From: Lama glama
Taxonomy: Eukaryota
Reading direction: 5' to 3'
NCBI GenBank assembly: GCA_028534125.1
Contig: CM052816.1
Location: 22,136,001-22,200,000, forward strand
DNA: 64,000 bases
Made by a program: the position numbers and the translations under genes. Below are positions 1,170 through 41,399 of this stretch, one piece after another (position 1 is the first letter of the stretch; each line of letters begins with the position of its first letter). The notes below the pieces were generated by a model. That model had not been told where the DNA came from. It searched no databases and saw only the letters and a program-made list of their open reading frames with translations.

Positions 1170-4100
1170 ATACATTTATAGTTTACTAACTGTTAAAACC
1201 TCATTGGCTTTCTATACAAGATGATTTCAGATGTTCTGCTTTGTCTTTTTGTTTAGAAATAATTTATAGTTATATTTTATATTAGTTTATATAATTTATA
1301 AAATAAATATATAAAATAATTCAATTATTTATATAGCATTTACATTTTTATAAAAATGTATAATGGTTTGAAGCTTTACAAAGCCAGCATACATTGATTG
1401 CTTTATTTGTTAGTAGTTTGAAAGACCTTTTTAAACCTAAAGATTTCATCGGTATGCCTTAGCATCACAGTATTTCATATTCAGAGGAAATGCATTCTTA
1501 AATGACTGTCCTTTGGTGTAGATTCCTAGTAATGTGTTGATCAGGGCATTCCCCTTTGTTGCAGTTACTTCATTTGAATTGGTGAGAATATGAAATGGAG
1601 ATCACAAGAAAATTTTTAAAGTACTGGAAGTGAAAAATCATTTATTCACATAATCATGTATTTTAGTTATTTGATAAATTACTGACTTCAAAATATGTTT
1701 GTTTTTTTTTTGTTCAGTAAGTAAGAGAGTAGTCATTATTTCTGAAGACACAATGTGGTATAGTGTATCATCAGAGTGGTGGTGGGTTCACCTGCTCAAT
1801 ATAGAATTTGGCCTGTTTGTTTGTTTCATGGTATTGTTGCACGGAGAGATTTTGCATGCTAGGCTTACCATACAATTCGCTAGAACGGCAGATTCTATGA
1901 GATGATTGGTAGAACAAGGAAAAGGATGAGGTCATCTTCACTTACAGGCCAATCTAAAGGAAAAGAGAGTTTGTTCTTTTGTGGTGGTGTTTGCTACAGT
2001 AGTTCTAACATATAACATTAGTGGATTGCATTTCATACACAGGGCAGAGGTTTTTTTTTCTTTTTTTTTTTTAAGCAGCTAAGAGGTGCTGTCTGTCTTG
2101 CTCAGCTTGAGGTCCTCCTTTGTGTGCTATCAGCATGATTTATAAAAAGGAGGAAAGATGCCCATTAGGATTTTGCTTTTTTCATTTGATTGTAACTTAT
2201 CCTGTTGGTACTGTATGTGAATATAATGATTGTCTGGCATTGAAACTGAAATGTTCTTAAGTCATGCTAATGTTTGTGTACAGAATGCTCGTCTTTTAGG
2301 AAGTTATCTTTAGGAAATGTTTGGTTTCATTTACACACAAGGTGCCTACTGTCATTTTTCCATTTTTAAAAATGAGTGTTAAAATTAGATTTTAGTTTAT
2401 TCTTGAATGCTTAACATTTTGTTGAAATTCCAACCTATTGTAGTTTATTTAAATTAATTAAATGGAAAAAAATACATTGGTACTTGAAAATCAACCTGTG
2501 CATATTTTCCATATCTTAGGTTTATAAATTAGAGTCATTGTTATTTGTTTTTCTTAGAATTAATTTTATATTTAAATATGTATTTTGTGTATTTTTTGAA
2601 ATTTTCTCAGAAAGCAAATAATGGTTAAGTTTTATGGATACCCAAGTTTATAAATGATCACTTACTGTGAAAGTGTGACTTGTCTTTTATTCAGTGTAAT
2701 ACTTAATTTTTCTAAAGTCATTTCTAGTCTTATAAGTAGTAGCATAATTCAGAGTGGCAATGTAGTGTTGTTCAGAAAAGTGAATATACTTTGCCCAGAG
2801 GTATTGAAAAACTATTTATTTGGTTTTTTGTTTGTTTGTTTTTGGCTAATGACACGGTATTTCTCTCTCTGACAGTCAGTAGAGTCCTTTGTAATAACAC
2901 CTGTCTCTCATGTAATTTAAATTTCTCCTCTAAGGTGCATACCTTTTCCCCTCAAAACAGTGGTAGATGAATAAAGCAAGATAGTTTTATTACTTTGATA
3001 TATTCATTGATGTTACTCTCATAATTTTGCTGCCTGGAGGCATACTGACTGTATTTTGCCATTGGAAACTATGTTTTACTTGGACTGTTGGGAGGCACCA
3101 TTACAAACCTTTAGTGTAAACTCTTTGTGGGAGTGTCTATCTACATTAGATACCTTGTGGCAGAATCTGAAGACTAAGAAGGGTACTAGAGGAATTGTGT
3201 TTTTAGTTTGGACAGGGTGTGTGGTAAGAAAGAAATTTTTTTTCCTGTTATTTTTGTAGAAAAATGGTATTTCATTTTAGTCCAAGCTCAGTTTGAAGCA
3301 GGTTGAATCATTTTCTTTCTGATTCCTTCTGAATTTTACTTCCATTCCAGTCTCTTTCTAGGAATTTAGTGTTGGGCTGTATGTAGGAAGGTACCATATT
3401 GCATAGAATATTCTTCCTTAGAGGGATTAGTGCATGCTGCAAGTCAGCTGTTGTGCCTGTGGGTTTTTTTTCTTCTCAGCTATCCTCTGCAAAATGAAAT
3501 TCTGTTGTTTTCATTTAAATTTGCTATTTACATACAAATCTTAGTATCAGTTTGATATTTTTAATGTTAATTTAAGGTGGTCTTGAAGATTATACCTTTC
3601 CAGAAGTTATTTGATAAATAAGTTTTGCAAGCAGAAACCCATGAAATATTAGTAGTGTTATGAATGAATACATATGTGACATCTGAGAACTAGTCTGCCT
3701 TCTGCTTTTGCAGTGCAGGAGTGTCTTACCAGAGCTAATTATTTTCCCTTGGGAGGACAATACTCTGTTAAATTTGAATAATAATGTTAGGAAGTGTGGC
3801 ATCCCAAATAAAGCAGTCTATCAGTGCATGGAAGTAAAAATCAAAGAGATTTTAAAAACTGAAATAGATGCTTAAGCCATTTTTTTTTTCTTACAGAATT
3901 TAGCTTGCTGACATGTCTCACAGAAGGGTGTGTGTGTTTTCAATAAATTGCTCTTGGGGCTGCATCTGCAGATACAGTAGCCAATTGATCTAATGCAGTT
4001 TCTGAAGGCTTTCTATACAGGTGATGTCATCCTTTTAGCTCTATTCTCCTCCCACTCTCTTTCCTTCTTATTAGATATTTCATCTTACTGCAGAGCATAG

Positions 4101-4990
4101 AATCAATAGGAGCTTCTCCTTAGGGAGCTGCTGTGAAACAGGCAAGGACAGTAGGAATTAGGACACTAACATACAGTCTTGCTTTAGCAGAAGATGTAGT
4201 GTTTTTGTATGATATCATAAATTTTCAACCAGAAAAGCCAGACTTAGATCAGCACTACTGTCTTACTGATGCATTAGAACAAGAAGCAGTGCTGCAGAGC
4301 TGTAAATAGTGCATTTGAAAAGAGAAATTTTTAATTTTGGAGATTCTCAGGCATTCTACAGAACAAACCTGTTAGAGCATATATCTTCTAACTACCATTT
4401 GCTCAACGGTTGATTTTTTTTTTTTTGAACCTCTGGTGATTAACAATATAAAGAAGAAACTTTCATCTTAAGGATACAATGTTCTGGTTTGCTTCTGATG
4501 CAGAAGAATTACTGCAGTGTTTACTCTACAGAATGAAATAAGTTGAAGAAAAGAAAGCTGTATTACAGAAAGGAAAGGTTTCTCAGAATTCAGGAACACA
4601 GATTTGGTGCATGTTGCCTTATTTGCTTTGATTCATACTGTATTAACTGTTGTGTTACCACACTGTGTGCATGTCTGTGCCAGGTGCCTGAGGAAGCATG
4701 TGTATGTCTGTGTGTTCTAAGCCAGAAATATAAACATCTTGCTTTACTGTAATTTGCTTGTTAAAAGTGAACATTTTGATGAAAACTGTTGCAGTTATTT
4801 AGAAGCTAAATTCTAAGCTACTGAAAGCTCCTGATTTCAGTTTGAAAGGGATTTGGAGAAGCTGTTTTTACACTGCAGTTTACACTGCAAATGGTGCATG
4901 ATTTGTAAAAAAAGAAACTTAGAATTTTGTCAACATACTCATCGGTGTGGGTCTGGTTTGAAAAGGAAACTATCCTTTCCAGCTCAGGAA

Positions 4991-5044
4991 ATGGCTTTTC
5001 TTGTTCGCTGTTATGCCAATTGTCTTCAGCCATGGGCCTCCAAA
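4991..5044 (+). CDS. RAPGEF6: Probable alternative (internal) first coding exon of RAPGEF6, MAFLVRCYANCLQPWASK
   Basis: ATG at 4991 in strong Kozak context (gaaATGG). 18 open codons end at a consensus donor AAA|gtaagt (5045), phase 0, which matches the phase-0 exon at 16613. No transcript evidence available. Confidence 0.7.
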
Positions 5045-6665
5045 GTAAGTAATTGTTTTTTTTTTTCTTTGAGATTGATATTATCTAGCTGTTACATTCA
5101 AGTCCTATTTTGAATTGCAAATAAGCTTTATTGTACTATTATATTTTCCAAACTTTAAAAAATAAGAACTGTAAAGCAATCTAAAAAGCTCAACCTCTTG
5201 GCCATTTTGTTTTTCAGTTTAAAGGAATCTCTGAACTATTCTAATGTACCTGATAGAGAATTTTAAAAATACTTTCTTAATAATCTACAGACTTAAAATG
5301 CAATACATTTGAAATGTACTGTCTTCGGACTGAATCATCATTTGTTTATGGCTATTTCTGTACTTCCCTGTGATCTTACTCTTACTTGAATGTATTGTAT
5401 TTACTCACTTCCTTAAATGGTATATTTAGCTATGCTAGTCTCATCTATAGTCATAGGACGTTTTTCACTGATAGGGTACTGTCAAGTAAATTATTGAATT
5501 ACATTATTTTATGAAGACTGGGTAATAATTCTTAAGCAGTGAAATAATAAGAAAATATTATGAAAAGCAGTTACAAGAAAATATTTTAATAATGTTCCTT
5601 TTATTTTCAAAATAGTAGTAAGTGAACCATTAGTAGCTTGAAATTGCTTAAGATCATCTGTTATACTTGTCATTTTAAAACAAACATATTAACTCACAGA
5701 AATGCAAAATGCTACACAACAGGATATGCTTGGTTTTAGGAAAGTATAAAGTGTGATTTAATAAATTGTATTGTTCATAGTGGCTTTTTATATAGATCTA
5801 GAATTTGAGGCCACTTATCTTTCCTGTTATATAAATTTCAAAACAGAAGTGTGAATTTTTAGTTGTGTTTTAGTAAACATTTTAATTGTAACATTGGCTG
5901 TGTTAAGATTTCTTTATGGTCCTGTTGAATAGAGACAGGCACCATACAAGCATTTCTTAGGATGAGCTGAAATCATGTCTTTGTTTAAAGATTGTCCTAT
6001 TGATGGTGACTAAGGAAGAAATACTATGATAGCATCATGGTGTACTGTTTATCTGAAAGATAGCTCATTGGATGTCTTTCTTAAAGGCACCTTCTGGAAG
6101 AACTTTTAAATTCACTGTCCATTTGGCAAACTGCTGATTAAAATATAAAGAGATGGGAAGAAGCCTAGGTACACGCTTCGTTTGTACTATTATCTAGTAA
6201 GGCGTGGATGGTCTCTTTAGTGGAAATGCCACCTGTGGGATCCTATGGATTGCTGATGCTTGGCACTGAGGTTTAAAACAACATATAGAAGGGGAATAGA
6301 TGAGACCAGGTTTAAAAAAATTCAAAGGAAAGAATGAGATATAGGAGTTGTTCTTTAGAATACTAACAAAAAATAGCCTTTGGGTGTACCGGTATCCAAC
6401 TTTTGATTAAAGGTTTAACAAGTGTGGAAGAGCCAAAGAGGATTTTAAATACCAGATTTTTTAAGGTTCCATTAAATGCCTACAGATATTATCTGAGCAG
6501 CATGTTGTGATTTGTACTTTACTGTGTAGATTAAGTATTTATAATAAAGTACATGTTTCCTCCCCTACCCCTTCCATGTTACTATTAATAAAATTTTAAC
6601 TGTGGCTTGTGATTAAGCATATTAAGTTGGTGATTAACTTTTCATACTTGCTACTTTGGTTTTCT

Positions 6666-16612: not shown

Positions 16613-16744
16613 CTTCCAGCCGATCTTACCAAGATGCACATCGCTGACAACCCTCACCCACAGGTGACTCATGTGTCTTCTAGTCAGTCTGGTTGTAGCA
16701 TTGCCAGTGACTCTGGGAGCAGCAGTTTATCTGATATCTATCAG
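16613..16744 (+). CDS. RAPGEF6: RAPGEF6 internal exon (about exon 7), [44 protein letters not shown]
   Basis: ttttttcttcag acceptor, CAG|gtaata donor, 132 nt, phase 0/0. Peptide recognised as RAPGEF6/RAPGEF2 family. Confidence 0.96.
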
Positions 16745-22975: not shown

Positions 22976-23153
22976 GCTACAGAAAGTGAGGTAGGAGATG
23001 TAGATTTAACACGTCTTCCAGAAGGACCTGTTGATTCTGAAGATGAAGAGGAGGAGGATGAAGAGATTGATCGAACAGATCCACTGCAGGGACGAGATCT
23101 TGTTCGAGAATGTCTGGAAAAAGAACCTGCAGACAAAACTGATGATGACATTG
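22976..23153 (+). CDS. RAPGEF6: RAPGEF6 exon (about 8), acidic region [59 protein letters not shown]
   Basis: tttctttctgtag acceptor, G|gtaaga donor, 178 nt, phase 0/1. Confidence 0.96.
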
Positions 23154-23201
23154 GTAAGAAGTACATCTGTTCACAGTAAGAATTTTATAGTTTAATTTAT
23201 A

Positions 23202-23725
23202 TGTAGTTACCTATTGCTGCATAACATATTACGCCAAACATAGTAGCTTATAACAACACACACTTATTTTCTCATAGTTTTTTTGTGGGACAGGAATTCA
23301 GGAACAGCCTAGCTGAGTGGTTCTAGCTCATTGTTTCTCAGAAGACTGTAGTCAGAATGTTGGCAGGGGTTACAGTCTTATGAGACTTCACTGGGCTGAG
23401 CTAGAGGATCTACTTCCAAAGTGGCTGCTCACATGACTTTTGGCATAGAATCTCAGTTCCTTGGCACATGAGCCTCTGAAGGTTGCTTAAAAGTCCTCAC
23501 AACATGACAGTTGGCTTCCTCCAAAGCAAGTAATCCAAAGGAGAATGGAGGCAGATGCCACAGTGTCTTTTATGATCTGGCCTCAAAAGTGATACATCAT
23601 TGCCTTCCCAGTTCTGTTTGTCACACAGAGTGACCCTCATATAATAGGGGAAGATACTGCATGAGGACATGAATATCAAGAGGCAAGAATTGTTTAGGGC
23701 CATCTTCGAGGCTAGCTGCCCCAGT
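23202..23725. mobile_element. MaLR (MLT1-family) solo LTR
   Basis: Begins tgtagttacctattgctgcataaca...ttattttctcatagtt...caggaattcagg and ends ...ggccatcttcgaggctagctgcc, typical MLT1 termini (recognised from memory). Confidence 0.7.
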
Positions 23726-23726
23726 A

Positions 23727-23982
23727 TGAGAGCTTGTTTGGAAGTTCTAGTTGGGGAACACAGCTACTCATATACCCTTGACTGAAGAACAGTTGTCTGT
23801 CAGGCAAGGTTCTCCTCTACTGGGGAAGGTCATCCTCTTTCACCAGGTGCAAAGCTTCAGGAGGGATGCTTGCGTGGAGCTGTAAGGGAGGAAGAGGACA
23901 TGTGCCTAGACAGACAGATCAAGTGAATCAGCCATGGCGATCAGTAGGGTGATGAATGTTGCAGCTGGATCGCCCTCACATC
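23727..23982 (-). pseudogene. 7SK snRNA retropseudogene, 3'-truncated (about nt 2-240), no poly(A) tail
   Basis: The reverse complement reads GATGTGAGGGCGATCCAGCTGCAACAT...CAAGGGTATATGAGTAGCTG...CTAGAACTTCCAAACAAGCTCTCA, matching vertebrate 7SK with many substitutions. Flanked by direct repeat gctgccccagt (23715-23725 and 23986-23996). Confidence 0.93.
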
Positions 23983-25243
23983 TTGGCTGCCCCAGTTTAT
24001 AAAACAAAAGATTCTTTCGTTAATGCGCTTTAATTGCATTAAAGTGATTTTCTCCTTCATGTTTGTATGTTTAAAACACAGTATATCAATGTGCTTTGTC
24101 TATGAACTGTTATAAGTGTTATCAAAAATCATATTTTTGCCTCTAGCTTGAAAAAATATATGTATATACAATTTTTGGTTCAAATTTTATAAAGTCTTTA
24201 ATTTTTTATTGAAGTACTTACTATACTTTGGAGATTGAGTAATACTAAAGATGCTAATGTTATCGGTAAAGATTACTTAGTGTCATTATATATTATGAGT
24301 CAATTAAGATTTTATCTTAGATTTCCCTTCCCCCGCAGTCATATTACTGTGATTCTAACCAGAAGTTACTGCTACTAATAATTATAATCTGTGTGAATAA
24401 AGATTGATACATTTTAACATTCCTTGCCCTGCTAATGACATATAATATAGTTAAGCAACCTAATTTAGACTCTTGTTGTGAATACTTTCTTGACAGAAAT
24501 TGTAAGTGCATTTTTAATGATAAAGAATTGTACACTACATTCTTTTCACAAAGCTTTTTCAGAATTGAAATATAATTAACTTCCAACTATCTGTGGGTGG
24601 ATAGCACCTTATACTTCTCTTTTAGCCCTTACCTTACCTGCCTGCTTAAATATGTTTCTCCTTTATATTTATTTTTATTATTCATGTATCTATACCAGGG
24701 AATGGTCTTAGACAGGCACTCATAAACATTTGTTGATTAGCTAAAAGAGAATTATCTTGTAGTTGCTTTGACAAATCTTAAACTAGTATTCATGTTTGTT
24801 GTCCCTAATTTAATTACTGACTTATATTAATTACTTTTAAAAAATTCTGGCTCAATATGAACTAGACAAAAAGCTTTTTCACTAACCTGTTAGATCAAAG
24901 GACATCACAAACTTAATCACCATGGAGTAGAATCTCGTGCTAGGAGAATAATCTAAACTCTCCAACCGCGTCTGATTTTGTGTGGTTTCCTGGTTCTCTC
25001 TGGAAAGTGTGAATTCTGGTATCTTCCATTGTGCCTGTATTTTCATATGCATCTGAATATATCTGTTAAGCAAATAACTGAATTTTTTTTTAACCAACAG
25101 TCACTTTGTGTCTTGGTTTCTCTAGTTTAACAGCATAAATTCCTAAATTGATTAGGAAATTGGGTATTAAATTCTAGATTTTATTGTATCTTTAGACTGT
25201 AGTCCTTGATGGTCTCCATACTAGAATTTCTGTTTTTTAACAG

Positions 25244-25380
25244 AACAATTACTGGAGTTTATGCACCAGCTTCCGGCTTTTGCAAACATGACCATGTCTG
25301 TAAGGAGAGAACTCTGCTCAGTGATGATTTTTGAAGTGGTAGAGCAGGCTGGAGCTGTTATTCTTGAAGATGGGCAAGAG
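25244..25380 (+). CDS. RAPGEF6: RAPGEF6 exon (about 9), start of cNMP-binding-like domain (E)[45 protein letters not shown]
   Basis: ttttttaacag acceptor, GAG|gtaggt donor, 137 nt, phase 1/0. Confidence 0.96.
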
Positions 25381-25792
25381 GTAGGTTAGCTAATAAATGT
25401 TACACATTACTTGGTATGGCAGCTAATTTTTAGAATAATTTCCATAAGCTTATGTAAATCTTGACTTTTAAAATTTATACAATTTTTAAAATGAATACTG
25501 AATTTAGGGGTAGTTTTCATTTCTGAAGAGATACATTTTGCTTTGTTTTCACTTTACTTTGTCTTAATTTTGATTTCCTGGCAGTGGACCTTGGAACAAG
25601 TAGATGTTCGATGAGTTAATATTCACTGAACCAAATTGGTTTCTCTTCTCAAATTAAGTTGTAAGACATTTAAAAAATTTCTTCATTATTGCTTTATTAT
25701 TATATTTATAACATTATTACTGTCTAAAATGTTTATGAAGTATTTACTCTCCCTATCCCTTTTCTATATTATACAATTTTTTTAAATGAAGG

Positions 25793-25794
<2 letters not shown>

Positions 25795-25834
<40 letters not shown>
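25795..25834. repeat. (GT)20 microsatellite
   Basis: Perfect GT dinucleotide run. Confidence 0.95.
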
Positions 25835-25840
<6 letters not shown>

Positions 25841-27189
25841 TTATAAGTACTTTTGCCTCCCTGTGGACTGCTGTTAGTTGAGGCATTTGTGTAGCAATTC
25901 TATTTTCAAAAGTGAGATATACCAGAAGTGTCATAATTTAAACATTTAAAAACAAACAAAAAAGGACAAATGCACAAACTTGCTGTTGCTTGGATGGCAA
26001 CTTGTAGACGGGTGGAGGGAGGATTCAGAGGACTTGAAAGTTGTTACTGCTGTAGATAGTACTTGATTATTTTTCTTCTGAAACTGATAAAAATTAAAGC
26101 TGAGGTGTCAGTCAGTGAATATTGTCATACACTGTTAGTATGAATATAGGGCCTCAAAGTATTAAGTCTCTAACCTACTGTTCCACTTCTGAATGTCTCT
26201 CCTCAGGACACAATATAAAACTCAAAGAGGTATCCCAAATATACTCATTACAGCTTATATATAACAGTATAAATTGTAAATGACCAAAATACATTCCCCA
26301 AATAAGCAGTAGTTAAGTAAATTATTGTATAGCTACAGGTTATATGTAGGTTTTCAAGTTACTTTAAAATTTGATAGAAATCTTTGAGGGCGGGGACCTT
26401 ATCTCTAGCTTTGTTTACATGCTTTTTTCCAAATATCCTAGAAAATGTCAGGCACATGGGATTTCCAAAAAAAAAAAAAAAAAGTTTGATGAACAAATGA
26501 ATAGTATTAAAATTTTATTAAAATAGTATTAAATTTTTTGAAAAGACAGGGTAGTCTGAATATTTCAGCAATATGAAATAATATAAACATGGGAGAAAAA
26601 TATTAAACTTTAAACTTTTAAATTTTAAACTTTTAACAACAACTATGTGAAAAGTGGGATTTTAAGTAACTTTTATTTTCTTTTCCACTTATTTTGTCTT
26701 TTAGTTTTCCACATTTCTGTAAACAAAAATTTGTTGTGTGCCTGCTTTGTGCCAGATACTGTTCTAGCCATAGCAAGTACAGAGGTGGAAACACCTGACA
26801 CAACCACTGTCCTCAAGTAATTTGTGCATCACAAATTCCACAATGAGTGTATTTTGCATTTCACATAACTCCCAAAAGGCACACTTTTGAAAAAAATATT
26901 TCTTATTGCCACTGACTCTTCTTCAGGAATGATAATCCAGATTTTCCTTAAATCACATTAAACCTGTTGAAAGTTTAGGCTAGTAAAAGGGATACTAAAT
27001 GAGAACAAGTAGTCTTTCATTGATATATAGTGGACCTTAAAATATATCTCCTTAAAGCATTAAATACTTCTGTATAAACTGAAGTCCATATTTTAACATA
27101 GGAGCAATTTTGAATATTTTGTTAGAATGCCTTAAAATTCAGGCTTTTAGTAGTCTTTCTGAATTAATCTCTAGATATCTTTTTTTTCT

Positions 27190-27420
27190 TTTGAATGTTT
27201 GCTCTGTGCCAGGTACTATTCTAACCACTTAGTATGTATAAACTCATCCTTAATTAACACAGAAGTCCCATGATAGGTGCTGTTGTTACAGCCATTTTAG
27301 TGATAGAGAAACTGAAGCCCAGAGAGGTTAAATAAGTTGCCCAGAGTCACTTAGCTAGTCAGTGACAGGCTCTGGATTCAAATTCCAAGAGCTTGTGGTT
27401 TTAACTATAACGTTTTTTGT
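27190..27420 (-). mobile_element. MIR SINE
   Basis: gaaactgaagcccagagaggttaaataagttgcccagagtcac is the reverse MIR core. Further MIR relics at about 11750-11870, 12290-12430, 35820-36030 and 52950-53110. Confidence 0.8.
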
Positions 27421-27662
27421 CTCAGAGTATTTTGGTCAGTTATGAAGAGTCCCTGATTTAATTCAGTGATTAAAAGAAGAAAAAATAAAATAAACTTTAG
27501 TGTTTGCATCACAAGCAGAGTGTTACTCACAGAGTATTTAGTAATATAGTCAGATCTTCTTTCTTTTTTAAATTATGCAAATTCTATATATTGATTGATT
27601 CTTTTTCAAAGATACAACTATCTTTTTTAAAAGATTGTTAAAACCTATTTTTTTCTCTTTAG

Positions 27663-27821
27663 CTTGACTCATGGTATGTTATTTTAAACGGCACTGTAGA
27701 AATTAGTCATCCAGATGGAAAAGTTGAAAATCTCTTTATGGGAAATAGTTTTGGAATTACTCCCACTCTGGATAAGCAGTACATGCGTGGAGTTGTTAGG
27801 ACTAAAGTAGACGATTGTCAG
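27663..27821 (+). CDS. RAPGEF6: RAPGEF6 exon (about 10), cNMP-binding-like domain [53 protein letters not shown]
   Basis: ttttctctttag acceptor, CAG|gtgagt donor, 159 nt, phase 0/0. Confidence 0.96.
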
Positions 27822-28405
27822 GTGAGTTTGTCTCTGGTCATGTCCTCTTGTTTGTTGATTTTAAATGGCTGAGCCTATTTTTCTTTCCTCAAAATAAAAT
27901 GATGTGATTTGAGAATTAGAAGTTTTGAAAAATCACAGTTAATAAAGGAAACTGGATTTTATATCTGACTCAAATATTTGTGGAAATAAACAAACTATAA
28001 ATTTATTAAAGAGAATATACCAAATAAATGTGGTTTGTTAAATTTCTATCTGATAGTAGCCAACTCAGTCCCTTTTTTTTTTTTTAATTAAGAAAAGAAA
28101 TAGGAACTACTGAGTTGTTTGTTTCTAACTTACTCCTGCTTCATGTTTTCTTTGCAGAGGGTCAGTTTTGAGAGAAGTAGATGTTCACTTCTCCTTTTAG
28201 AGTAGAATTCAAACAGTTTTAACTTCTTTGGTCTCTTTGTGCACGAATTATTTATTTCACTTTGATTTTTGTTAAGGAATAAAGGGATTAAATAAAAAAA
28301 GAACTGATGCCACTTGAGTTCTTACCTCTGTGCTCTGCCTTAGTTCGTAGTGATGTATTTATGTATTATAGGTTCGTTAATTGTCCCCATGTTGTTCTTG
28401 GACAG

Positions 28406-28558
28406 TTTGTTTGCATAGCTCAGCAGGATTATTGGAGAATTTTAAATCATGTGGAAAAAAATACCCATAAAGTTGAAGAAGAGGGAGAAATTGTTATGGT
28501 ACATGAGCACCGTGAACTAGATCGAAGTGGAACCAGGAAAGGACACATTGTCATCAAG
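28406..28558 (+). CDS. RAPGEF6: RAPGEF6 exon (about 11), [51 protein letters not shown]
   Basis: ttcttggacag acceptor, AAG|gtgggt donor, 153 nt, phase 0/0. Contained in ORF 28307..28585. Confidence 0.96.
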
Positions 28559-29449
28559 GTGGGTGTTTTTTACTTACTATTCTAGTTACTGACAGAACAA
28601 AGCTTTCATCTTGCTTGTAAGACTTTGAATCAGGTTTTGAGTAGTGCAAGGTAATTCACTAACTTTGGGATCTAATGTAAGTAAATGTGTTGGTTCTTTT
28701 GTCTTTTTCTCAGTTGGTTTTTGCACAATTTATTGATGAAGGGTAACATTGCCATTTGGTTTCAGTATGGAAAGGTATTATTTATAATACACCACAGCTT
28801 TCCTTCTCAAATTTATCTTATGATCCATGGTTATGGGATTAGTTTCATCAAAAACAGCAGCATTTAGAAACAAAACAAATTGAAAGGACCAACCATAAAT
28901 ACATAAAGAATCCTAGACAATTCTTACTGGATCTCTGTGACACTAACTTCTTGGAATCTCAATTTTCTTATCTGAAAATGAGTGTGGTACAGCAGGGCTT
29001 TTTTAAGAGTAAATGTGGTAAATCACAAGACGTAGCATGTTACAGAGTCTGAGTATTAATCCCCATACTGTTTTCTCTAACTCCTTTTTCCCCTTTTCCT
29101 TGTCCCCCTTGCCTTACACTCCCCCATCCTGTTTCTTTAAAGACAGCAAGATGTAAAGAAGAGCAGTTAGAGTTGAAGGAGAGGAGATAAATGCAGGACC
29201 TTTTTTCTTTTCAAGCTCATCTTGGTTGTAGAATAAGTAAATGTGTTATTTTTCATTACAAATGCAGCAGCTTATTTAATAAGAGGGACTGATGTCAGAT
29301 CAGTTCTTCCTCAGGAGGCAGACTATTGTTCAACACTGTCTTTTCTTTTCCTAAACTGATACGTATAAGCTTTCTGTGTAGAGAAGATGAACATATGTGT
29401 GGACTTCCATAGGCTGTCTTTCTATGGAGGCTCATGTTTTTTAATGCTT

Positions 29450-31080
29450 TTTTTTTTAATAAATTTTAAACTTACAGAAAGTTGCAAGAACAGTATAGAG
29501 CCCACCCTGACTCACATTCCCCAGCTGTTAAAATTTCACTGCATTTTCTCTGTTATCATCAGTCTTTTTGAACTATTTGAGAGTAGTCAGCAAATGTGTT
29601 GCCTCATCACTCCTAAATATTCCTGAATTTAATTAATATGAAATGTTTCATTTAATTTTAGGAATTTTAATATTGTGTGTTTTTCCTAAAAACAAGAACC
29701 TCTCCTACATAAACTCCATAGAACCCTTTGAGTTAGGAAATGGACATTGATAAAGTAAAACTATTCTGCCCACAGACCCTATTTAGATTTTCACCAACTC
29801 TCCAGACATTAGCTCTTTTCCTTTCTGGTTCAGAATCTCATCCAGGAATACAGTTGCATTTGGTTGTCATGTCATTTCAGTCTACTCCAGGAACATTCTT
29901 TTCCTGTTCACATTCTCAGTAGTTTTCAAGAATATAGACGTTATCATCTGTAGTATGACCATCAGCCTGGATCTGTCCAGTGTTTCCTCATGCCCAGGCT
30001 AAAGTCATGATGTCCTGGCAGAAATTGCACAGATATGAAGTTGTGCTCTTCTTAGTTCATCATATCAGGGAGCTCACATTGTCAACCTGCTGCACCACCA
30101 GTGAAGTTAACCTTAACCACCTGGTTGCATTGGTGTCTGTCTGCCAAGTTTCTTCACTGTAAAGCCGAGATTTTCCCCTTTATAATTGAGAAGTATTTGG
30201 AGCAGAGATGTTCTGGAATAGTGTCAATCAAACCTCTATCCACTGGTCTTCACTTCCACTGACCACTCCTGCCTGAAATGGTGATTTTCTATTTCCATTA
30301 TTTCTCTTACACTTTAGTCATTTTACTGTAAGAATGAGCAATCTCCCTCCATTAATTTAATTATATTTGTATGGTCTCATGTATTGTATTCCCTTGCCAT
30401 CAGTGTTGTTATGATCATCAAATTGTCCTAGATTTGAACAGTAGGACCCTGTTAAGGCTGACTTTATATCCTTTTGACATGACCCCATCATTTTTGGGGA
30501 GCATCCTTATTATCAGGCAGAACAGGATGTTCCAGGCTCATCTTGCAGTTTTCCTGCCCCAGCTTTGGAATTAGGCATTTCTCCAGAGAGCTCTGAGTCC
30601 TAGTGAAGAATAGCATTTAAAAACCAAGATCTAGGGGAGGGTATATCTCAGTGGTAGAGTGCATGCCTAGCACACACAAGGTCCTGGGTTCAATCCTAGT
30701 ACCTCCATTAAAAATAAATAAAAACTTAATTACCTCCTCCCTCTCCCCCCCAAAAAAATTCTAAAAATAAATTTAAAAAATAAATAAATAAAATAAAAAC
30801 AAAGATCTGGGCATTCATTCTGTGCATTGCTACTGAGGTGTCACTTCTTCTAGTGCCTTTTATCAGACAGAGGTAGGAAATATATGTATTTACTATAAAT
30901 TCATACACATCTATAACTTCTTATATGTAGCCTAGCCTAGCTAGCTACCTATAACAATCATGAGTTCATACCAGTACTCCCAATTCAAGTACTATACCAG
31001 AGTTTTTGGTAGCCTTTTCCTTTCCCTATTTGTAAATACCTTATCCATCAGTGGCTCTAGTTATGCTCTGAATATTTACT
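29450..31080 (-). mobile_element. Ancient L1 3' region (L1MC/ME-like), interrupted by a SINE; boundaries approximate
   Basis: aaattttaaacttacagaaagttgcaagaacagtatag and gttgcatttggttgtcatgtc motifs typical of antisense L1M 3' UTRs. Confidence 0.6.
30634..30794 (+). mobile_element. tRNA-derived camelid SINE (Vic-1-like), full length
   Basis: ggggagggtatatctcagtggtagagtgcatg...gggttcaatcc (A and B boxes), C-rich tract and A tail. TSD aaaaaccaagatctag / aaaaacaaagatctgg at a TT|AAAA site. Confidence 0.9.
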
Positions 31081-32137
31081 TATTTGCTCATCATAAGCAG
31101 ACTCTGTCATGCCAGCCATCTCCTGCAGCCACCAACTCTGCATACTCTGCACCCAGCATCACACCTTGTTGGATGATAGTGAACACCTTGATGACATGCC
31201 TCTCCATGACTGTGCGATTTCTCTTTAAAGTTTTGAATATATGGCCTAGCCTCCATAGAGATCTTGCCTCAGTGATTTAGCTAATCAGAATAATGGCCCT
31301 TCTTTAACATGTTGATCATTTCTACCCCTGACCTAGCTATATGTGAACTAAGAACCAGATTTAACATGTTGATTGCTCACTGTGGGTCAGGTACCCCTGA
31401 GGAAACTCAGTTGTCACCCAGATTTGGGTGATGTGGTGATCAAAGTGTTAAGTGACCTCAGATTATGATTTGCCTGAATGATAGATCCGATTTGGTATTC
31501 TTAGTGTGTTTTGGAGGGTGAGAAAATAGGAATGACCTGTGGGTATCTTGTCCCTTAAATGGATTATATGAAGACCCTTTCCTCTGACTTCATTCTAGAG
31601 AATTTACATGCCTTATTAGCACTGGGTACCCTTTTATATTTTATAATAGATTCTTACATAAGAACATTGTTCACATTAATGTATGTTTGCCATGCATTAA
31701 TTCTGAACTGTGTAGTTGTTTGGATGAATGGAAAAAATTAAAATATGAGGTTATGGGCAACAGTTGGTTTTTATATTTGGTTTAACATCTGGCTTATTTC
31801 TGTATTTGTTCTGTGTACCCACTTTTGAAAAGGCTGCAAAGGTAATAAATTTTAACATTGATTCAGAAGCTCAAGGAGGAGCAGTAGATAAATGTTGTTT
31901 GCATTTCTTTTTATAAATTGGAAAGCAGGCAAGCAGTTAAAACTCTGAATCAATGTAAAAGCTATCTATAGCACTTCTGGTTTCTCTCAAGATGGTAAAC
32001 TAGAATAGAGAAACCATAGAAGAGGAAACTTCTATTCCAGGAAGTACAACAATAAAACAAGCTATCTTGAACTGCTATGTTGTTGCTATAGCCTGGGGCA
32101 GAAGAGAAATTGAGGATGGTTAAATTTGGAAGAAAGC

Positions 32138-32185
32138 TTTATTTATTTACTTCTTTCTTTCTTACTTACTTACTTACTTACTTAC
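32138..32185. repeat. Compound (TTTA)/(TTTC)/(TTAC)n tetranucleotide repeat
   Basis: tttatttatttacttctttctttcttacttacttacttacttacttac. Confidence 0.85.
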
Positions 32186-32532
32186 CGAGTTCAATTCTCA
32201 TCTCTTCCTTTCCTTCTCTTGACTTGAGACAGTCATAACATCATCTCCCCTCCTCCCCCGCCTCCCTGGTATGATGAAATGCCAATAAAAACAGCTACAG
32301 CTGAGTAAATGGTGCTGTGCATGTTTATTCCTCTGCCTTCTCTCTAAAACCTCTGGGTGCTGGTGGACTACAACCTAAGGGAATTACGTACAACCAGTGC
32401 TAGGGGTTTTAAAGGTGAAGCCCTGCTTTGGGAACTTTTATAATAGTGTGGCTACAAAGGGAAGTAATCAATAGGAGTTCTTTGGTTCCTGAGCTATTTA
32501 TTTTCTAATTCTTCCTATCTTTTGATTTTTAG

Positions 32533-32697
32533 GCAACACCTGAGCGTCTCATCATGCATTTAATAGAAGAACATTCCATTGTGGACCCAACTTACATAGA
32601 AGATTTCCTATTAACTTATAGAACATTTCTTGAAAGTCCTTTGGATGTCGGGATCAAACTGCTGGAATGGTTTAAAATTGACAGCTTAAGGGATAAG
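32533..32697 (+). CDS. RAPGEF6: RAPGEF6 exon (about 12), REM/RasGEF-N domain [55 protein letters not shown]
   Basis: gatttttag acceptor, AAG|gttggt donor, 165 nt. The [12 protein letters not shown] motif is typical of REM domains. Confidence 0.96.
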
Positions 32698-33554
32698 GTT
32701 GGTTTTGTAAAGGACATGAAAGTGATTTTAGCCTTTAAATTTTGTTCCCCCCAAACCATTTGCAACTGATAAATGTTTATTTTGATAACCAGATTCAGTT
32801 CATCTAAAAAAGTTAGAATAGATACATCTCTTGCTTAGTTTCTTTTATGACAAAAGAGCATGTTGAAAGTTGATATTTTGCCTTTTAAAAGGCAAAAACT
32901 GAAATAAGACTGTGGTGTAGCTGTAAATTCAAAAACATAACTGTACTTTTTGCATTTTATCAAAATATTCGGTTGTTTCTGAGATCAGTAAAACATTTAG
33001 AAGTTTTTTAATAATTTAGAAAGAATAGTCACCAAGTAAATTTTTGTCAGAGGGCTTAGATTGTTTGTAAAATAGAAATTTATTGACTTTTCTGAGTTGA
33101 AGACTTTATATAATCATTTTAAAACAATTTGTTTTGACTTTAACTTACCATTAATGTGACTTACTTAAATCTGCTCTGAGTGTATTTCTTGCATTATTGT
33201 TTGCTATTTTAAATAGATTATCTTTATTTTATGAGGTGCTTGTACATGGAAAGACTAGTAGTAGTACCTCAGCTACTGCTACGTTAACTACCAATAACTA
33301 TCTCAGTAACTGGTAGGAAGTTAGTTATTTTAAGAAAACTAAAAGTAGGGCCATAGTTGCCTAGTATGTCTTTCTGAGTTATGCTTTAAAGGAAATAAAT
33401 TAGATGTAGCTGAATTCTGTGGAATTCTATTACTTAGGAAACAAACGTGTCCAAAACTACAGGCTTGCCTTTTCCCTGCTTTTGGAGTTGTATATAGTTA
33501 CTTAGGTTGCTGAGGAGATAAATTCATGCTAGAGAATGAAAAAAATATGATTTA

Positions 33555-34738
33555 GGAACAACTAGATATCTAAATGTAAAAGAACAAAGTTTGACCTTTA
33601 CGTTATAGTCAGTATTAACTTAAAATGGATCAGAGACCTAATGTAAGAGCTAAAACTATATAATACTCTTAAAAGAAAAGAAGGGGTGAAAAAACCATGA
33701 CCTTGGATTAGGCAGTGGTTTCTTAGGTATAATACCCAGAGCACAAATTTGAAAAAAGGAAAAAAATAGATAAATTGAACTTCATCAGAATTAAAACCTT
33801 TCTACATCAAAGGAGCTATCAAGAAAAGCAAGACAACAAATAGAATGGGAGAATATATTTGCAAACCGTATGTTTGATAAAGGCCTAGTATCCAGAATAC
33901 ATAAAGAACTCTTACAACTCAACAACAAAAAGACAGTACAATGTAAAAATGGACAAAGGACTTGAATAGACATTTCTCCTAAGAAGATATATAAATGGCC
34001 AGCAATCACGTGAAAAAGATGTTCAGCATCATTCATCTTAGGGAAATGCAAATCAGAAGCACAGTGAGATTCTGCTTCACACCCACTAAGATGGCTTAAA
34101 AAAATGAAAAGGAAACACAAGCATTTCAGGGATGTTGATGTGGAGAAAATGGAATTCCCATATGTTACTTATAGTAATGTAAAACGGTATAGCTGCTACG
34201 AAAAACAGAATTACCATATAACGCAGCAGATCTTCTCCTTAGGTATGTATCCAAAAGAGCTAATAGATGTGCAAACAAAAGTTTTTATACAAATATTCAT
34301 AGCAGCACTATTGATGATAGCAAAAAAGTGGAAACAACCCAAATGTCCATCAGCTGATGAACGGATAAACAAAATGTTACATAGCCATATAAGGAAATAA
34401 TATTCAACCATAAAGAGGCATGAATTGCTGATGCTGCAACATGGATAAGCCTTGAAAATATGCCACGTCAAAGAAGCCAGACACAAAAGGTCACACGTTG
34501 TATGAAATAATCCAAGTAGGCAAAGCACAGAGACAAAAAAGCAAATTAGTATCTGCTAGGGGCTGGAGAGCAGGCAGAATGGAAGGTAACTGTTTACTGG
34601 GAATGGGGTTTTCTTTTGGGGTGATGAAAATGTTCTGGAGATAGTTGTACACCATTGTGAATATACTGAATGGCGCTGAATTGTATACCTAAAAGTGGTT
34701 AAAGTGGTAGATTTTATGTGTATTTTACCACAGTTTTA
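33555..34738 (+). mobile_element. Older L1 (L1MB-like): degenerate ORF2 C-terminus plus 3' UTR
   Basis: ORF2-like remnants (e.g. FIAALLMIAKKWKQPKCPSADERINKM in ORF 34104..34400) and a typical 3' UTR ending ...gtattttaccaca. Confidence 0.85.
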
Positions 34739-35240
34739 ACTTACATTACTCATATTGTTAGGCACATTATTCAGTTCAACCTCCATTTGTTAATTTTTAA
34801 CTTCTTTGTTAATCTATGACACAAAGTAATAAATCAGTTCACAACTTTGAAAATTCATAGTATTTTTGATGTTTCAGAATTTTGGTTAAACATATTCTCA
34901 GTTAAACACTTTTGATGTGATTGCCTGCCCTTTGAAGCTTGTAATTTAAGACAGTCTCTGAAATATACATCCCATATACTTCTTATATGTTAGCATACAG
35001 GCTTGTGTTTTCGTACTGAGGGCACAGAGTCTTGACTCTTACTTTGTGTACAAAAGGAAGCAAAAGCTCAAACAAAACCATGCCTCTCTGTTAGAATGAA
35101 CTTGTGTGTGGCAAAATGGGAAAAGGGGTTAGCCATATAGCTTAGTTCCCCCTCAGTTTGGAACATGCTTTTGGAATCTACTTTTGCAGAAAGGATGCCA
35201 CTGTTATAATCATTATGCTGCCTCTTCCATGTTTCCACAG

Positions 35241-35348
35241 GTAACACGGATTGTATTATTATGGGTAAATAATCATTTTAATGATTTTGAAGGTGATCCT
35301 GCTATGACTCGATTTCTGGAGGAATTTGAAAAAAATCTGGAAGATACA
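35241..35348 (+). CDS. RAPGEF6: RAPGEF6 exon (about 13), REM domain [36 protein letters not shown]
   Basis: tttccacag acceptor, ACA|gtaagg donor, 108 nt, phase 0/0. Confidence 0.96.
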
Positions 35349-36977
35349 GTAAGGCTCAGAAGAATTTTATCTTCTTCAGAGTTTAGGGTTTCTTACCTTA
35401 CCCGTCTTCCAAAGAATAGCAACTCAGAACAGCTTTCATCTTCTCTGTCTTGAGTGTCTGTTCTGAGAACTTCCAAATCTGTATTCTAGAATTCTGTTCA
35501 TCCTCTGCCACTCCAACCCAAACAAAAATGCATCTTCCTGACTCTTCACTGATTTGGACATACACATACACAGACTTAACAGATCTACATTAGATTTTTC
35601 AAGTCTCCTTTCTGCATGTGATTTTACTTAATCAAAATATACAGTGCCTAAGGTAATATCCTCAAGGTCTTCTTAAGGCCTCTTAATATCTCAGGGTCTT
35701 TCATAGTAGCCATTTATAAGTCCGTTTTATTCTCCCTATTAGATATAAAACTTGGAACTGCAACTGGGTTGTCTGCTCCAAACACCTTGAAATTTTAGGA
35801 ATAAATAATAAAGCAGATCAGAAGTCAGATTGCCTAAATTAACATTCAAACTCCACCACTTGCTAGATGTGGGAATTTGGACTAGTTGCACAATCTTACA
35901 TTCTTTGGTTGTCTTATTTTATAGGTAGCAGCCTCTAGTTTATTGGGACTGTCATAAGAATTATAATGAGCTGATAAACATAACAATCTGCAAACAAAAC
36001 CTGGCACATAGCTAATGCTCAAGAAGCATTGTTATTACTCATAGAGTAGAAGTGGAATAAAGAAGGGGCAATTGGCAGATATTTCTGTCCTTTTCCTTAC
36101 CCTTTGGTTCCTGTAGCCTTTTCAGCAGCACATCTGCTTTATACAAATTGGGGAGAATGGACAGGGAACTTGATCAGGAGGCTGTAGAGGCTCACCAACA
36201 TCATTTGGATCTTCCAGTGCTGGCTGTGTGAATATTCAAGGGGCTTATGGAAAATAGAAACTGCTTTACGATTAAGGGATTTTTTTTTCCCCAGTAATCA
36301 AGTCAGTCATCAAGTATTTATTGAATTCTACTTTATACTCAAAGCTGTTATGTAGGATTGGAACAGGCGTAAGACATGTTTCCTGCCCTGAAAAAATGCT
36401 GGCTGCTTGTTATGCACATGAGATTTACACTTATTACACAGATTGAGAATAGTTGAATATTAAACTCGTTTAGAATATGAAAGTTTGAATGTTATTGAGT
36501 GTAAGGAAGATATAAAATAGTATAGAAATAATATTTCTGGGAGAGATGGAGACTTGAATATTAGAGAGTATTTGGAAAGGTGGTTCAAACCCTTTAAGGT
36601 TTTAAATAAAGGTTTAAAAGGTTCTGGTTGTATATCACAGCCAGAAAATAAGCAAGATAACAGTAGAGTATTTTACAGGAAGGCTCAGAAAATGAAGAAT
36701 TTTTTTTTGTTTTTCCTCTCTAAATGAGACATCACTTCAAATTTTTTTCTAACCTGTGATTATCTAGAAGTTTAAAAAAAATCATACTAAGAGATTCTAC
36801 TCTTCAGAGTGCTCTAGGATGGAAGGTTTCCCTCCTTCAGTTTTATTTATCCCTGCTTACGTGTTCTTTACTCTGCTTCAAATACAGTTCTAATTCTAAT
36901 AATTTTAGGTGAATTTTTAAAGCTTTTAGGAATAGATCTATACATTTATATACATCTTACCCTTTTCTGCTTTCTAG

Positions 36978-37181
36978 AAAATGAATGGTCATCTCCGGTT
37001 ATTGAATATTGCCTGTGCTGCAAAGGCTAAATGGAGACAGGTTGTGCTGCAAAAGGCTTCCCGAGAGTCCCCTCTGCATTTCAGCCTTAATGGAGGGAGC
37101 GAGAAGGGATTTGGTATTTTTGTTGAATGTGTAGAACCTAGTAGCAAAGCTGCTGATGTGGGACTGAAACGTGGTGATCAA
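36978..37181 (+). CDS. RAPGEF6: RAPGEF6 exon (about 14), PDZ N-terminal part [68 protein letters not shown]
   Basis: ctgctttctag acceptor, CAA|gtaagt donor, 204 nt. PDZ hallmarks GIFV and GLKRGDQ. Confidence 0.96.
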
Positions 37182-38099
37182 GTAAGTAAATACCCAACCA
37201 CTTTAATTAAAACCTTCGTGTAAGTAATATGTCTGCTACTTTTTTTCTCATCTGATATTTCTTCAAGTAAACATGATCAATTTAAGGAAAAAAAATTGGA
37301 GCCTCTCTTTAGAGGTGGTATTTTTAAATGGTTTATTTTTAAAATATATTTGTCATATATCCATTACTTTTAATGGAAAATTTGATATAGTATATCCAGA
37401 AACAACATGGTAGTCTGGTCACCATCAACCTGAATTGTCCGGCGCATCCTCCTAGGATTAGGAATCTGTATCAGCTGGCAACTTCACAGTATTCCAGAAA
37501 TACCAGTATGTGAGTTAGCACCCTTGCATGTTTTGAAGGAGCGAGCACTTCTACCCATAGCACTCTAAAGTAAGAATGGCCAAAGATTACCATCATAAAT
37601 GATGGTTTCTGTCTAAATTAAGTTTATATGGTAACAGAACTAATAGCATCAACAGAGTTAGCCAGGTAAAGGACTAGGAGAAGGAAGGAGACACTGGGAG
37701 GAAGTTGATAGGGATTTGTTCTTCCCACACAGGCATGAGGTAACCATAGAACAATCTATTTCACAATGTGATTGCTGAGAACCTTGTTACTAAAAAATAC
37801 AATTCCTAGGCCCACCTTAATATGATTCCTCTTATTGATTGTATTAATCACATTCTCCAGAGATGAGGTCTGGGAATCTGTATTTTGAAAAAAGCTCTCT
37901 AGATGATTCTCATGCACACTGAAGAGTGGTTTCTCAAACCTAGCTGAATCACTTGGGAAGTTTACTTTGTTCCATTAAAAATTTTTTGTTTCATTCATTC
38001 ATTTAGAACGTGACTTTATTTTGCATTTAGCCAGACTGTACTATCTTTTTTTTAAATTATAAGGGCATTCACATTACGAAAAGTTGTATACTTCAGAAT

Positions 38100-38320
38100 A
38101 GCGATTCTCAACCAACCATGATTTTGTCACCCAAGAGGCATTTGGCAATGTCTGGAGTTGTTTTTGATTGTCATAACTTGGGAATTACTACTGGCATCTA
38201 GTAGTAGAGGCCAGGGGCCAGGGATACTGCTGAGTAGCCTGCAACACCCCACAGCAAGGCAGTGACACAACAGAGTTATCCAGCCCAAATACCAGTCGTG
38301 CAAGGGGTTAGGAGACTCTG
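38100..38320. mobile_element. MER20 (hAT-Charlie)
   Basis: gattctcaacc...catttggcaatgtctggag...ctactggcatctagtagtagaggccaggg...ttatccagcccaaa, a recognisable MER20 core. Confidence 0.8.
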
Positions 38321-38436
38321 ACATAATTAGCTGAACTTACATCATAATAAAATATTTTAAAATTTTAAAATAAATTACGTAATAAAGAAAAAAAACTCAT
38401 ACAAAGTTTTAATGATATCCTTCCCTTAAAGGAGCT

Positions 38437-38572
38437 TTTTATTTATTTTTTAACATTTTTTATTGATTTATAATCATTTTACAATGTTGTGTCAAATTCC
38501 AGTGTTCAGCACAATTTTTCAGTCATTCATGGACATGTACACACTCATTGTCACATTATTTTCTCTGTGAGT
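38437..38572 (-). mobile_element. Young L1 3'-end fragment
   Basis: Reverse complement closely matches about 13010-13140. Confidence 0.85.
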
Positions 38573-40122
38573 TTTTTAAATTAAAGATTTCTGGGCATTA
38601 CTCCAGACTACTTATTAAGTAGTACTCTAGTAACTAGGAACTTGGAGTCATTATATTAATTGTTCTAGTATTTTCTTGTAAACATGTTCAAGAATCTCAT
38701 TCTTCACAGGAAAAAAAACAACAGTGAAATCCAATGGTTTCATTCCTGAGAGGATAGAAATGTATCATGTTTTTACTTCTTCCCTCAGTGCTCTTGATTA
38801 CCTGACATTTTAGATCTAGATTATAAGTCATTTTTCACATTGTGGATCTTCTCTTTTAAGAATACTTAGAAGTTTTCATTAAGTTTCATAGACTTAACAC
38901 AAGCAATCATTTAGACATTTACACCCGCCTTACTGGTTTCACTGATCACCTCTGCTTCACCTATACCATGTCACCATTATTTTGATTCATCTCACAATTG
39001 CCTTCTAGTACACCTCGTACCTCTTTTAGTATTTTTTTCAAAAAGAGCAAATGAATGCTATAGTTTTATGTGTCTTTTCGAGTGTGATGATGCTTTTGCT
39101 TGGTGAAGTATAAAAATCTTTGACTGCAGTTATTTTTCCCTGTGAACATCAAAGTTACAGAAAAGTATCACATCATCTTAGTATTGCACCAAGTCCAAAT
39201 CAACCTTTATTTTTCTTTCCTAGATCCTTTTGATTCTCCCCACCAACCTCTGCAGTGATGCTTATAGATTTTTTATTCTGTGTCCTTGGAATTCAAAATT
39301 TTCATTAGGATATATTAAAAAAATAGATCTCTTTATTTTCTTTGCATGGTAGTAGATAATCTATTTCAGTATGTAGACTAAAGAATTTTATGATTGCTGG
39401 GAATTTTGCTTCTGTGATTTTTTGTTGTTTTCTTTTCCTAATACCTTGTTTCTAACTTTTTTTTTTTTAATCCTTTTGAAATCTTTGTGTCAATCCTTGA
39501 GATCTGTTTTCGGTGCTTTTTTTTTTTTCTCATTATCTCTTTGTCCTTTTTCCTTGGAATTAGTACTTATTCCTTTGGGATTCTAAGGTACAGCCAAGTT
39601 TGGGAAGCCCTGATATGAAGGATCAGCAATGTCAAATGGAAAAAGACCCTATCACAGCTGTGCTTGTTGATTTTTGACTGCCTGATTCACTCAGTAGCAG
39701 GAAACAGTATTAGATGTATTAAGAGTACAAGTTTTAAATGAATTTGCCTTTCTTTTAAATGCAGCAAATTTGCATTTAGAATACTTCACTAAAATTTGTA
39801 TGTATGCAGTAATTTTTATGAGCTGATATGACATGATTAAAATTTTTCTTTCATATATAAAATATTATGTTAAAAAATTTTTTTCTACATGATCCCGGAG
39901 GGAATGAACTTTAAAAAAATGTTTATTAGTAGAGACTTGGGAAAATATAACAATATAAAGAAAAAAATTGAACTGTAGTCCCATTTCTCAGAGAGGGAAC
40001 AATTGTTCACATTATGGGTGCATTTTACTTGAGTTTTATTTTTTCAACATTAAATCTAAGGTTGCAGGAGTAACTAATACTGTTTCTGTCTTAATTTGTA
40101 TTTTTCAAATACTTTTCTCAAG

Positions 40123-40231
40123 ATAATGGAAGTAAATGGACAAAACTTTGAGAATATAACATTTGTGAAGGCCCTTGAAATTTTGAGGAATAATACTCAT
40201 CTTGCACTTACTGTAAAGACCAACATTTTTG
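40123..40231 (+). CDS. RAPGEF6: RAPGEF6 exon (about 15), PDZ C-terminal part [36 protein letters not shown]
   Basis: cttttctcaag acceptor (AAG), G|gtgagt donor, 109 nt, phase 0/1. PDZ IxEVNG motif. Confidence 0.95.
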
Positions 40232-41262: not shown

Positions 41263-41399
41263 TTTTGGGGTTTTGTTTTTGTGTTTTGGAGGGGGGCAGG
41301 TAATTATGTTTATTTTTTTAATGGAGGTAGTGGGGATTGAACCCAGGACCTTGTGCCTGTTAAAGTACACACTGTACCACTGAGCTATACCCTCCCTCC
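41263..41399 (-). mobile_element. Camelid SINE (Vic-1-like)
   Basis: ggggattgaacccaggaccttg...ccactgagctataccctccc. TSD-like ttcttaga(t/c)ttt on both sides. Confidence 0.88.

Follow-up and report, generated by a model that had tools for sequence, protein, structure and literature searches.

RAPGEF6 (PDZ-GEF2) is very likely to possess a real alternative first coding exon, located at 4991..5044 of the window (the whole 64-kb stretch of DNA that was analysed), which would be transcribed from a start within an intron and spliced to a downstream exon that opens with LPAD. For the organism of the window, the exon and the isoform that it would generate are predictions. The exon is already present in RefSeq/Ensembl-type RAPGEF6 models of other mammals and is already known as a gene model, so the news lies in the depth of its conservation and in its missing function and not in the exon itself. 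RAPGEF6 and its paralog RAPGEF2 are investigated in studies of cortical development, lymphocyte migration and the genetics of schizophrenia, and an alternative N terminus that hardly varies in either paralog suggests an as yet unstudied role in targeting or binding. The exon also bears on why the protein yield of the Rapgef2 N-terminal forms is not the same in neurons as in other cells.

The gene in the window is the RAPGEF6 of a placental mammal, and it runs off both window ends. By tblastn, most of the window exons match mole RAPGEF6 (P0086) at 94–100%, versus 56–88% for monkey RAPGEF2. The order of the cNMP-like, REM, PDZ and RA domains in the full-length forms is, by Pfam, that expected of the RAPGEF6 class, with the GEF exons lying past the window. 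No other RAPGEF6 coding exon was found in positions 1–16612, and the long-form proteins match nothing before 16604. The MKP first exon of RAPGEF2 likewise has no match in 1–16612, and RAPGEF6 therefore seems to have the exon at 4991, whose product starts with MAF, and to be without MKP, at least within the window.

The ATG at 4991 is found in the context GAA-ATG-G, with a purine at −3 and a G at +4, and the 18 codons that begin with it encode MAFLVRCYANCLQPWASK. The donor AAA/GTAAGT lies directly 3′ of 5044 in phase 0. The acceptor at 16613 is preceded by a long pyrimidine tract and opens the frame LPADLTK...DIYQ, which is followed by a donor after 16744. The start codon, the 18-codon frame and the phase-0 donor are all present in the window as the original prediction described them. 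The proposed joining to LPADLTK at 16613 holds as well: the frames fit, and spliced models in other species start with the peptide and continue with LPAD. No special feature was recognised at 4853, where the prediction had placed the start of its feature, and Tandem Repeats Finder returned no tandem array before 13102 in the window. A strong ATG followed by 8–60 open codons and an in-phase GTAAGT occurs twice on the forward strand of the 64-kb window (4991 and 21675) and not at all on the reverse strand, so this pattern alone does not decide whether the exon is real; the exon is raised above chance by its conservation. The second strong ATG, at 21675, lies in the intron after the LPAD exon, with its in-phase GTAAGT 25 codons on.

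Features of the window at and around the alternative first exon of RAPGEF6
Feature	Position	Strand	Basis or remark
Conserved non-coding block 1 with CCAAT box, candidate promoter element	3975..4003	+	About 1.0 kb 5′ of the ATG
Conserved non-coding block 2 with CRE-like octamer, candidate promoter element	4017..4053	+	One mismatch to the consensus
Putative 5′ untranslated part of the first exon	4054..4990	+	937 nt, 13 ATGs if the start is near the blocks
Weak upstream ATG	4898..4900	+	In frame only in the window sequence; unconserved as a start
AG, possible acceptor of a 57-nt in-frame cassette	4986..4987	+	Kept in some lineages only
Alternative first exon, coding part	4991..5044	+	MAFLVRCYANCLQPWASK, with Cys7 and Cys11; frame, donor, conservation
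5′ splice site GTAAGT, phase 0	5045..5050	+	AAA/GTAAG common to the window, L001 and L002
Common LPAD exon, convergence point of all N-terminal forms	16613..16744	+	Window frame; RAPGEF2 counterpart in passages of PMC5611689
Eleven further RAPGEF6 coding exons (cNMP-binding, REM, PDZ, start of RA)	22976..62239	+	tblastn with mole P0086; Pfam

Of 226 proteins collected, 147 are full-length RAPGEF2 or RAPGEF6. The peptide is present in 58 of these (17 with a RAPGEF2-type junction and 41 others) and in 22 short proteins. M1, A2, F3, L4, R6, C7, Y8, N10, C11, L12, P14 and K18, that is, 12 of the 18 positions, are invariant in all of the resulting 80 rows, a figure that is somewhat overstated because the rows comprise several isoforms per species, mostly predicted models, and were retrieved by searching with the peptide itself, a search that diverged copies would escape. 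The sole change at position 15 in these rows, Trp to Arg, is seen in P0041–P0047, RAPGEF2 proteins of two salamanders. Searches with the junction region returned peptide-bearing RAPGEF2 models in frogs, salamanders, monkey and narwhal, and peptide-bearing RAPGEF6 models in teleosts, frogs, tortoise, quail and mammals. The peptide exactly as encoded in the window, ending in WASK, is followed by LPADLT in the RAPGEF6 models of eight mammal species (two of Microtus, Peromyscus, Mesocricetus, Talpa, Cavia and two of Ochotona). A query with 4898–5044 gave 15 candidate proteins, comprising 14 unspliced genomic ORFs and one frog RAPGEF2 model spliced to LPADFTK. In all 21 unspliced genomic ORFs, the peptide is followed by VS, the read-through past the donor.

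Among the proteins returned by the searches, which are cluster representatives and some members, the peptide stands at Met1 in 56 of the 58 full-length carriers, the other two being from a single frog gene whose model extends upstream into unspliced sequence. Carriers that begin at this methionine occur in many species and none has upstream exons, in agreement with the claim of an internal alternative first coding exon. In addition, the protein P0162 comes from a single contig of 1,705 nt, assembled from reads, that runs from the peptide straight into the four exons downstream. The corresponding exons span more than 22 kb in the window, so spliced RNA exists in some mammal.

The peptide extends deep into the vertebrate tree. 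A HMMER search of the first 62 residues against 1.84 billion representatives gave 54 matches, of which three carry the peptide (P0162, the hagfish protein P0172, and P0212) and three are unrelated low-complexity sequences. No invertebrate copy was recognised among these 54 matches, which is weak evidence given so short a motif. Two hagfish proteins, from one cluster, carry the peptide with residues 5 and 13 changed and, in one of the two, residue 16 as well. Over the first 18 residues, vole RAPGEF6 and monkey RAPGEF2 agree at 17 positions, compared with 66% over the whole proteins, a local identity equalled by 145 of 1451 comparison windows; agreement with hagfish is 15–16 of 18, compared with 45–46% for the whole proteins, and is equalled by about 6% of windows. 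Because the same exon is found in RAPGEF2, RAPGEF6 and hagfish, it is older than the RAPGEF2/RAPGEF6 split. Judged by these comparisons, it is an exon of the single ancestral vertebrate gene that both paralogs have apparently retained.

The nucleotide sequences point in the same direction. A metagenome scan produced 17 pattern matches at three loci (L001, L002 and L003), of which L003 was a chance match and was dropped from the comparison. L001 and L002 are distant copies, and L002 is RAPGEF2-type, its upstream frame matching frog RAPGEF2. Synonymous and non-synonymous codon differences number 10:1 between the window and L001, 7:1 between the window and L002, and 6:0 between L001 and L002, and the start context GAA-ATG-GCT and the donor AAA/GTAAG are kept in all three. 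This synonymous bias and the identity across paralogs argue for selection on the peptide. Conservation of the ATG, frame and donor, on which the original prediction had staked itself, thus extends to both loci and to many vertebrates.

In the proposed mechanism, transcription would start at an intronic RAPGEF6 promoter, the donor after 5044 would be joined to the LPAD exon at 16613, and translation from the ATG at 4991 would yield a protein shorter than long-form RAPGEF6 by about 147 residues. The 18-residue tag would stand in place of the long N terminus (165 residues in chicken), with its degenerate cNMP-like unit and its basic segment from exon 6, and the second cNMP domain and the REM, PDZ, RA and GEF domains would remain in the short form; Pfam does find these domains retained in MAF forms. 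The predicted loss of an N-terminal degenerate cNMP-like region is supported by the match of long-form residues 8–86 to both cAMP-binding domains of EPAC2 (E 1.5e-14). The extra N-terminal domain of EPAC2 has been linked to subcellular targeting in the passages of PMC8534922 drawn on here, and a swap of such a domain for a tag therefore plausibly alters the site of GEF action. By analogy with Rapgef2-MAF (see below), neuronal expression of the RAPGEF6 MAF form is reasonably likely.

The tag is probably a targeting tag that would bring the Rap GEF to a membrane or to a binding partner by means of a short helix presenting F3, L4, C7, Y8, C11 and W15 on one face. On a helical wheel, these six residues do share a face, with the two cysteines 40 degrees apart. 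The hydrophobic moment of the peptide is not above that of shuffles (p 0.08), and an AlphaFold model contains a helix over residues 2–11 at a pLDDT of 26. Overall confidence in the AlphaFold model of P0091 is low (pLDDT 44.7), and the model does not dock the tag. S-acylation of C7 and C11 is the single most likely targeting route, although we hold it only tentatively. Both cysteines are conserved in 80 of 80 rows, beside hydrophobic residues and in a region predicted to lie outside the folded domains. Isoform-specific acylation of N-terminal cysteines is described, in the parts of PMC7802216 used here, for GRIP1b and ABP-L (Cys11), PSD-95 (Cys3/5) and LIMK1 (Cys7/8). For PDZ-GEFs, a phosphatidic-acid route to the membrane already exists according to passages of PMC7325102, so a lipid tag would be an additional route.

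Published palmitoylation data were compared with this proposal. Neither RAPGEF2 nor RAPGEF6 appears in the supplements of PMC4537140 and PMC5468251, a curated palmitoylome and a rat brain ABE/RAC set in which GAP43 is listed. In synaptoneurosomes (PMC12515174), the PALM/INPUT intensity is 0.004 for Rapgef2 versus 0.65 for Gap43, and in a mouse set (PMC12874130) the hydroxylamine/control ratio is 0.78, not significant, with no enrichment. The 18-residue peptide was not found in the two palmitoylome supplements searched for it. The mouse Swiss-Prot entry is numbered like the MKP form, with LLNIACAAK at 372 versus 370 in MAF forms. Because the reference entry is MKP-like and the data sets measure bulk protein, the peptide was probably never searched in them.

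The near-invariant residues other than cysteine exceed what acylation usually needs. There is an appreciable, if lesser, chance that the 18 residues are a non-lipidated protein-binding motif in which the cysteines form part of the interface. Such a motif would fit the absence of any variation at 12 positions across the 80 rows, N10, P14 and K18 among them, as it would the lack of an acylation signal for RAPGEF2/6 in the four data sets, but these data sets probably do not contain the peptide, given the MKP-numbered mouse entry. Both cysteines are, moreover, invariant and located on the hydrophobic face, and residues 1–30 gave no usable match in the ESM Atlas, with no known partner. It is improbable, by comparison, that the point of the isoform is the dropped N terminus, leaving a stable or translatable protein in neurons, with the tag setting stability or N-terminal processing. 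Passages of PMC5611689 report Rapgef2 protein only in tissues that use the short first exon and propose degradation or a translation block of the long forms, but stability would not demand near-invariance across the vertebrate tree, and in RAPGEF2 the MKP exon removes the same region while encoding an unrelated peptide, one that is not the same in frog and in monkey. A targeting tag remains the preferred reading.

With respect to the form of the exon, the original prediction had also allowed a 57-nt in-frame cassette, inserted between exon 6 and the LPAD exon by way of the AG at 4986–4987. Use of the exon mainly or also in this manner now appears quite unlikely. The phase does fit, and the window and the RAPGEF2-type L002 share conserved sequence in the 35 nt directly 5′ of the ATG (83% over 93 nt), where a pyrimidine tract and CAG give the look of an acceptor; this similarity between paralogs leaves a minor use as an internal exon conceivable. 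A Glu codon precedes the Met in 23 of 23 rows, as a cassette would have it, but this is accounted for by the −3 purine of the start context. Exon 6 stands before the peptide in none of the 58 full-length carriers and is present without the peptide in 75 of the 147 full-length proteins. The AG is found in the window and L002 but is missing from L001, and in 14 of the 23 rows the codon ahead of GAA/GAG cannot end in AG, making the acceptor impossible there. A second AG, at 4981–4982, lies directly behind the pyrimidine tract and, as the nearer of the two, would shift the frame by creating a 62-nt exon.

Translation from the ATG at 4898, which would add 31 codons and produce a 49-residue N terminus, is very improbable. 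The frame is open from 4835 and the ATG is present in the window, but its context is weak and the frame is unconserved in relatives: six related unspliced ORFs use a different frame over the aligned stretch, with the switch close to the A run at 4907–4914, and in L001 and L002 the frame is closed by stops 25 and 36 codons upstream and contains no ATG in between. A one-base assembly error in this eight-A run would abolish the 31-residue extension. Just 5′ of the same ATG, at 4867–4889, the window contains an 11-nt direct repeat with a period of 12, which seems to be single-copy in the related ORFs. The probability that the ORF and donor arose by chance, or belong to a conserved untranslated DNA element, is negligible despite the one further pattern of strong ATG plus donor in the window, since synonymous changes outnumber the others 23 to 2 over three non-independent pairwise comparisons, a codon pattern that on the sequences compared has already refuted it, and spliced forms are found in many species.

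For a translated first exon starting at 4991, a candidate promoter is fairly likely to be located about 1 kb upstream. Blocks 1 and 2 are the only upstream similarities between the window and L001 above shuffled controls. Block 1 is identical at 26 of 29 positions and scores 43, compared with a shuffled maximum of 36 in 60 shuffles, with the CCAAT box at −1010 in the window and −1061 in L001. Block 2, identical at 34 of 39 positions with a score of 50, follows in the same order at a similar distance from the ATG. An 11-mer around its octamer recurs in the RAPGEF2-type L002 at −502, and a shared 10-mer appears in 13 of 300 shuffles. The boxes are named after the CCAAT and CRE consensus motifs. 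No upstream CpG island or TATA box was found (CpG o/e 0.05). DNA similarity to other mammal-like loci begins at about 4486, and the changes of frame along it mark this region as non-coding. A start near the blocks would create a leader of about 0.9 kb containing 13 ATGs in the window and 10 in L001, an arrangement that would dampen translation or subject it to control; alternatively, transcription may start nearer the ATG.

A word search of read sets with 3300–5100 found at least half of the words in 19 of 24 runs. Fourteen RNA or guessed-RNA runs hold 0.53–0.64 of the words, and five unlabelled runs hold 0.96–0.98; the pattern fits a first exon of about 1 kb, but a related species diverging by a few percent would explain it just as well, and it is given no weight here. 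Four runs recorded as RNA that hold part of 3300–5100 are labelled reproductive system, a label that, if real, would speak against brain-only use.

Several further forms of RAPGEF6 transcripts were observed. In P0218, a JGI protein from a 1,395-nt contig, the PDZ exon (...KRGDQ) is followed by the LPAD exon, which in the window corresponds to 37181 joined back to 16613, a back-splice order. A circle from the LPAD to the PDZ exon would have 412 codons in frame (mole numbering) and thus no stop, and the order may come either from a circular RAPGEF6 RNA or from an error of assembly. The read-assembled P0162, P0217 and P0218 continue from the exon ending in VDDCQ into the intron (window 27821 onward) and then reach a stop, without a GEF domain. 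The P0162 product is 250 residues long. These ends may represent a retained intron, an early end or partly spliced RNA. In the RAPGEF6 models P0125 (hamster) and P0103 (shark), exon 5 is joined directly to the LPAD exon, skipping exon 6.

Taken together, these elements allow a broader reading, rather unlikely as a whole, in which both vertebrate PDZ-GEFs would carry a vertebrate-born tag, nearly frozen since before the hagfish split, that is doubly S-acylated and anchors them at the membranes of neurons independently of the PDZ/phosphatidic-acid and RA-domain routes. A CRE-type intronic promoter common to the paralogs would allow cAMP or activity to switch on a pre-anchored Rap1/2 activator, to which proteomics would be blind through its reference N termini.

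The closest known system is mouse Rapgef2-MAF, a form amplified by RT-PCR only from brain among six tissues (Jiang et al. 2017, PMC5611689, in the passages used here). Similar to the window exon, Rapgef2-MAF, of the exon 1′ cluster (NCS-Rapgef2), has an alternative first exon spliced to the LPAD exon in those passages. We infer from its name that Rapgef2-MAF is the RAPGEF2 copy of the exon at 4991..5044, the text of PMC5611689 giving no sequence for it. RAPGEF2 proteins starting with MAF have the same 18-mer with Ser at position 16, and the comparison of exons gives 17 of 18 residues, the same donor and the same start context, the link to the published form being made by name. The main difference is that the window exon is the RAPGEF6 copy. 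The original prediction was therefore right that RAPGEF2 has a short isoform whose own first exon is spliced to LPAD but understated the likeness, as RAPGEF2 has this same exon besides MKP. The passages of PMC5611689 mention no RAPGEF6 counterpart, no conservation of the peptide and no acylation (the string "palmit" is absent). Predicted RAPGEF6 isoforms of Ochotona princeps (XP_058533710.1) and Xenopus tropicalis (XP_017947625.1) have the identical Met1 peptide and the identical junction; they are automatic models with no sequence difference from the window exon. In the open-access literature, no study of the RAPGEF6 exon and no paper with the peptide string were found, and the exon is not described in the portions used of PMC6812752, PMC4490285, PMC7325102, PMC4045674 and PMC10178952. 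Work on RAPGEF6 seems to take the long form for granted, which PMC4490285 gives as 177.9 kDa.

Similar to the tag, GRIP1b, ABP-L, PSD-95 and LIMK1 have, in the excerpts considered, a short N terminus with cysteines near hydrophobic residues, no Gly2 and a neuronal context. Their acylation is known, whereas the RAPGEF6 tag is a candidate, and the likeness lies in these features and not in any recognised sequence homology. Long RasGRP2 is a further case of isoform-specific N-terminal S-acylation. For EPAC2 (RAPGEF4), the isoform EPAC2B reportedly lacks the N-terminal CBD-A. EPAC2 belongs to the Rap GEFs and, in the passages of PMC8534922 drawn on here, has an additional, weak cNMP domain at its N terminus that is linked to subcellular targeting; this CBD-A is homologous to the region dropped in the RAPGEF6 short form. 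Compared with EPAC2, the RAPGEF6 short form would replace the domain by a near-invariant Cys-bearing tag, and it is without a DEP domain.
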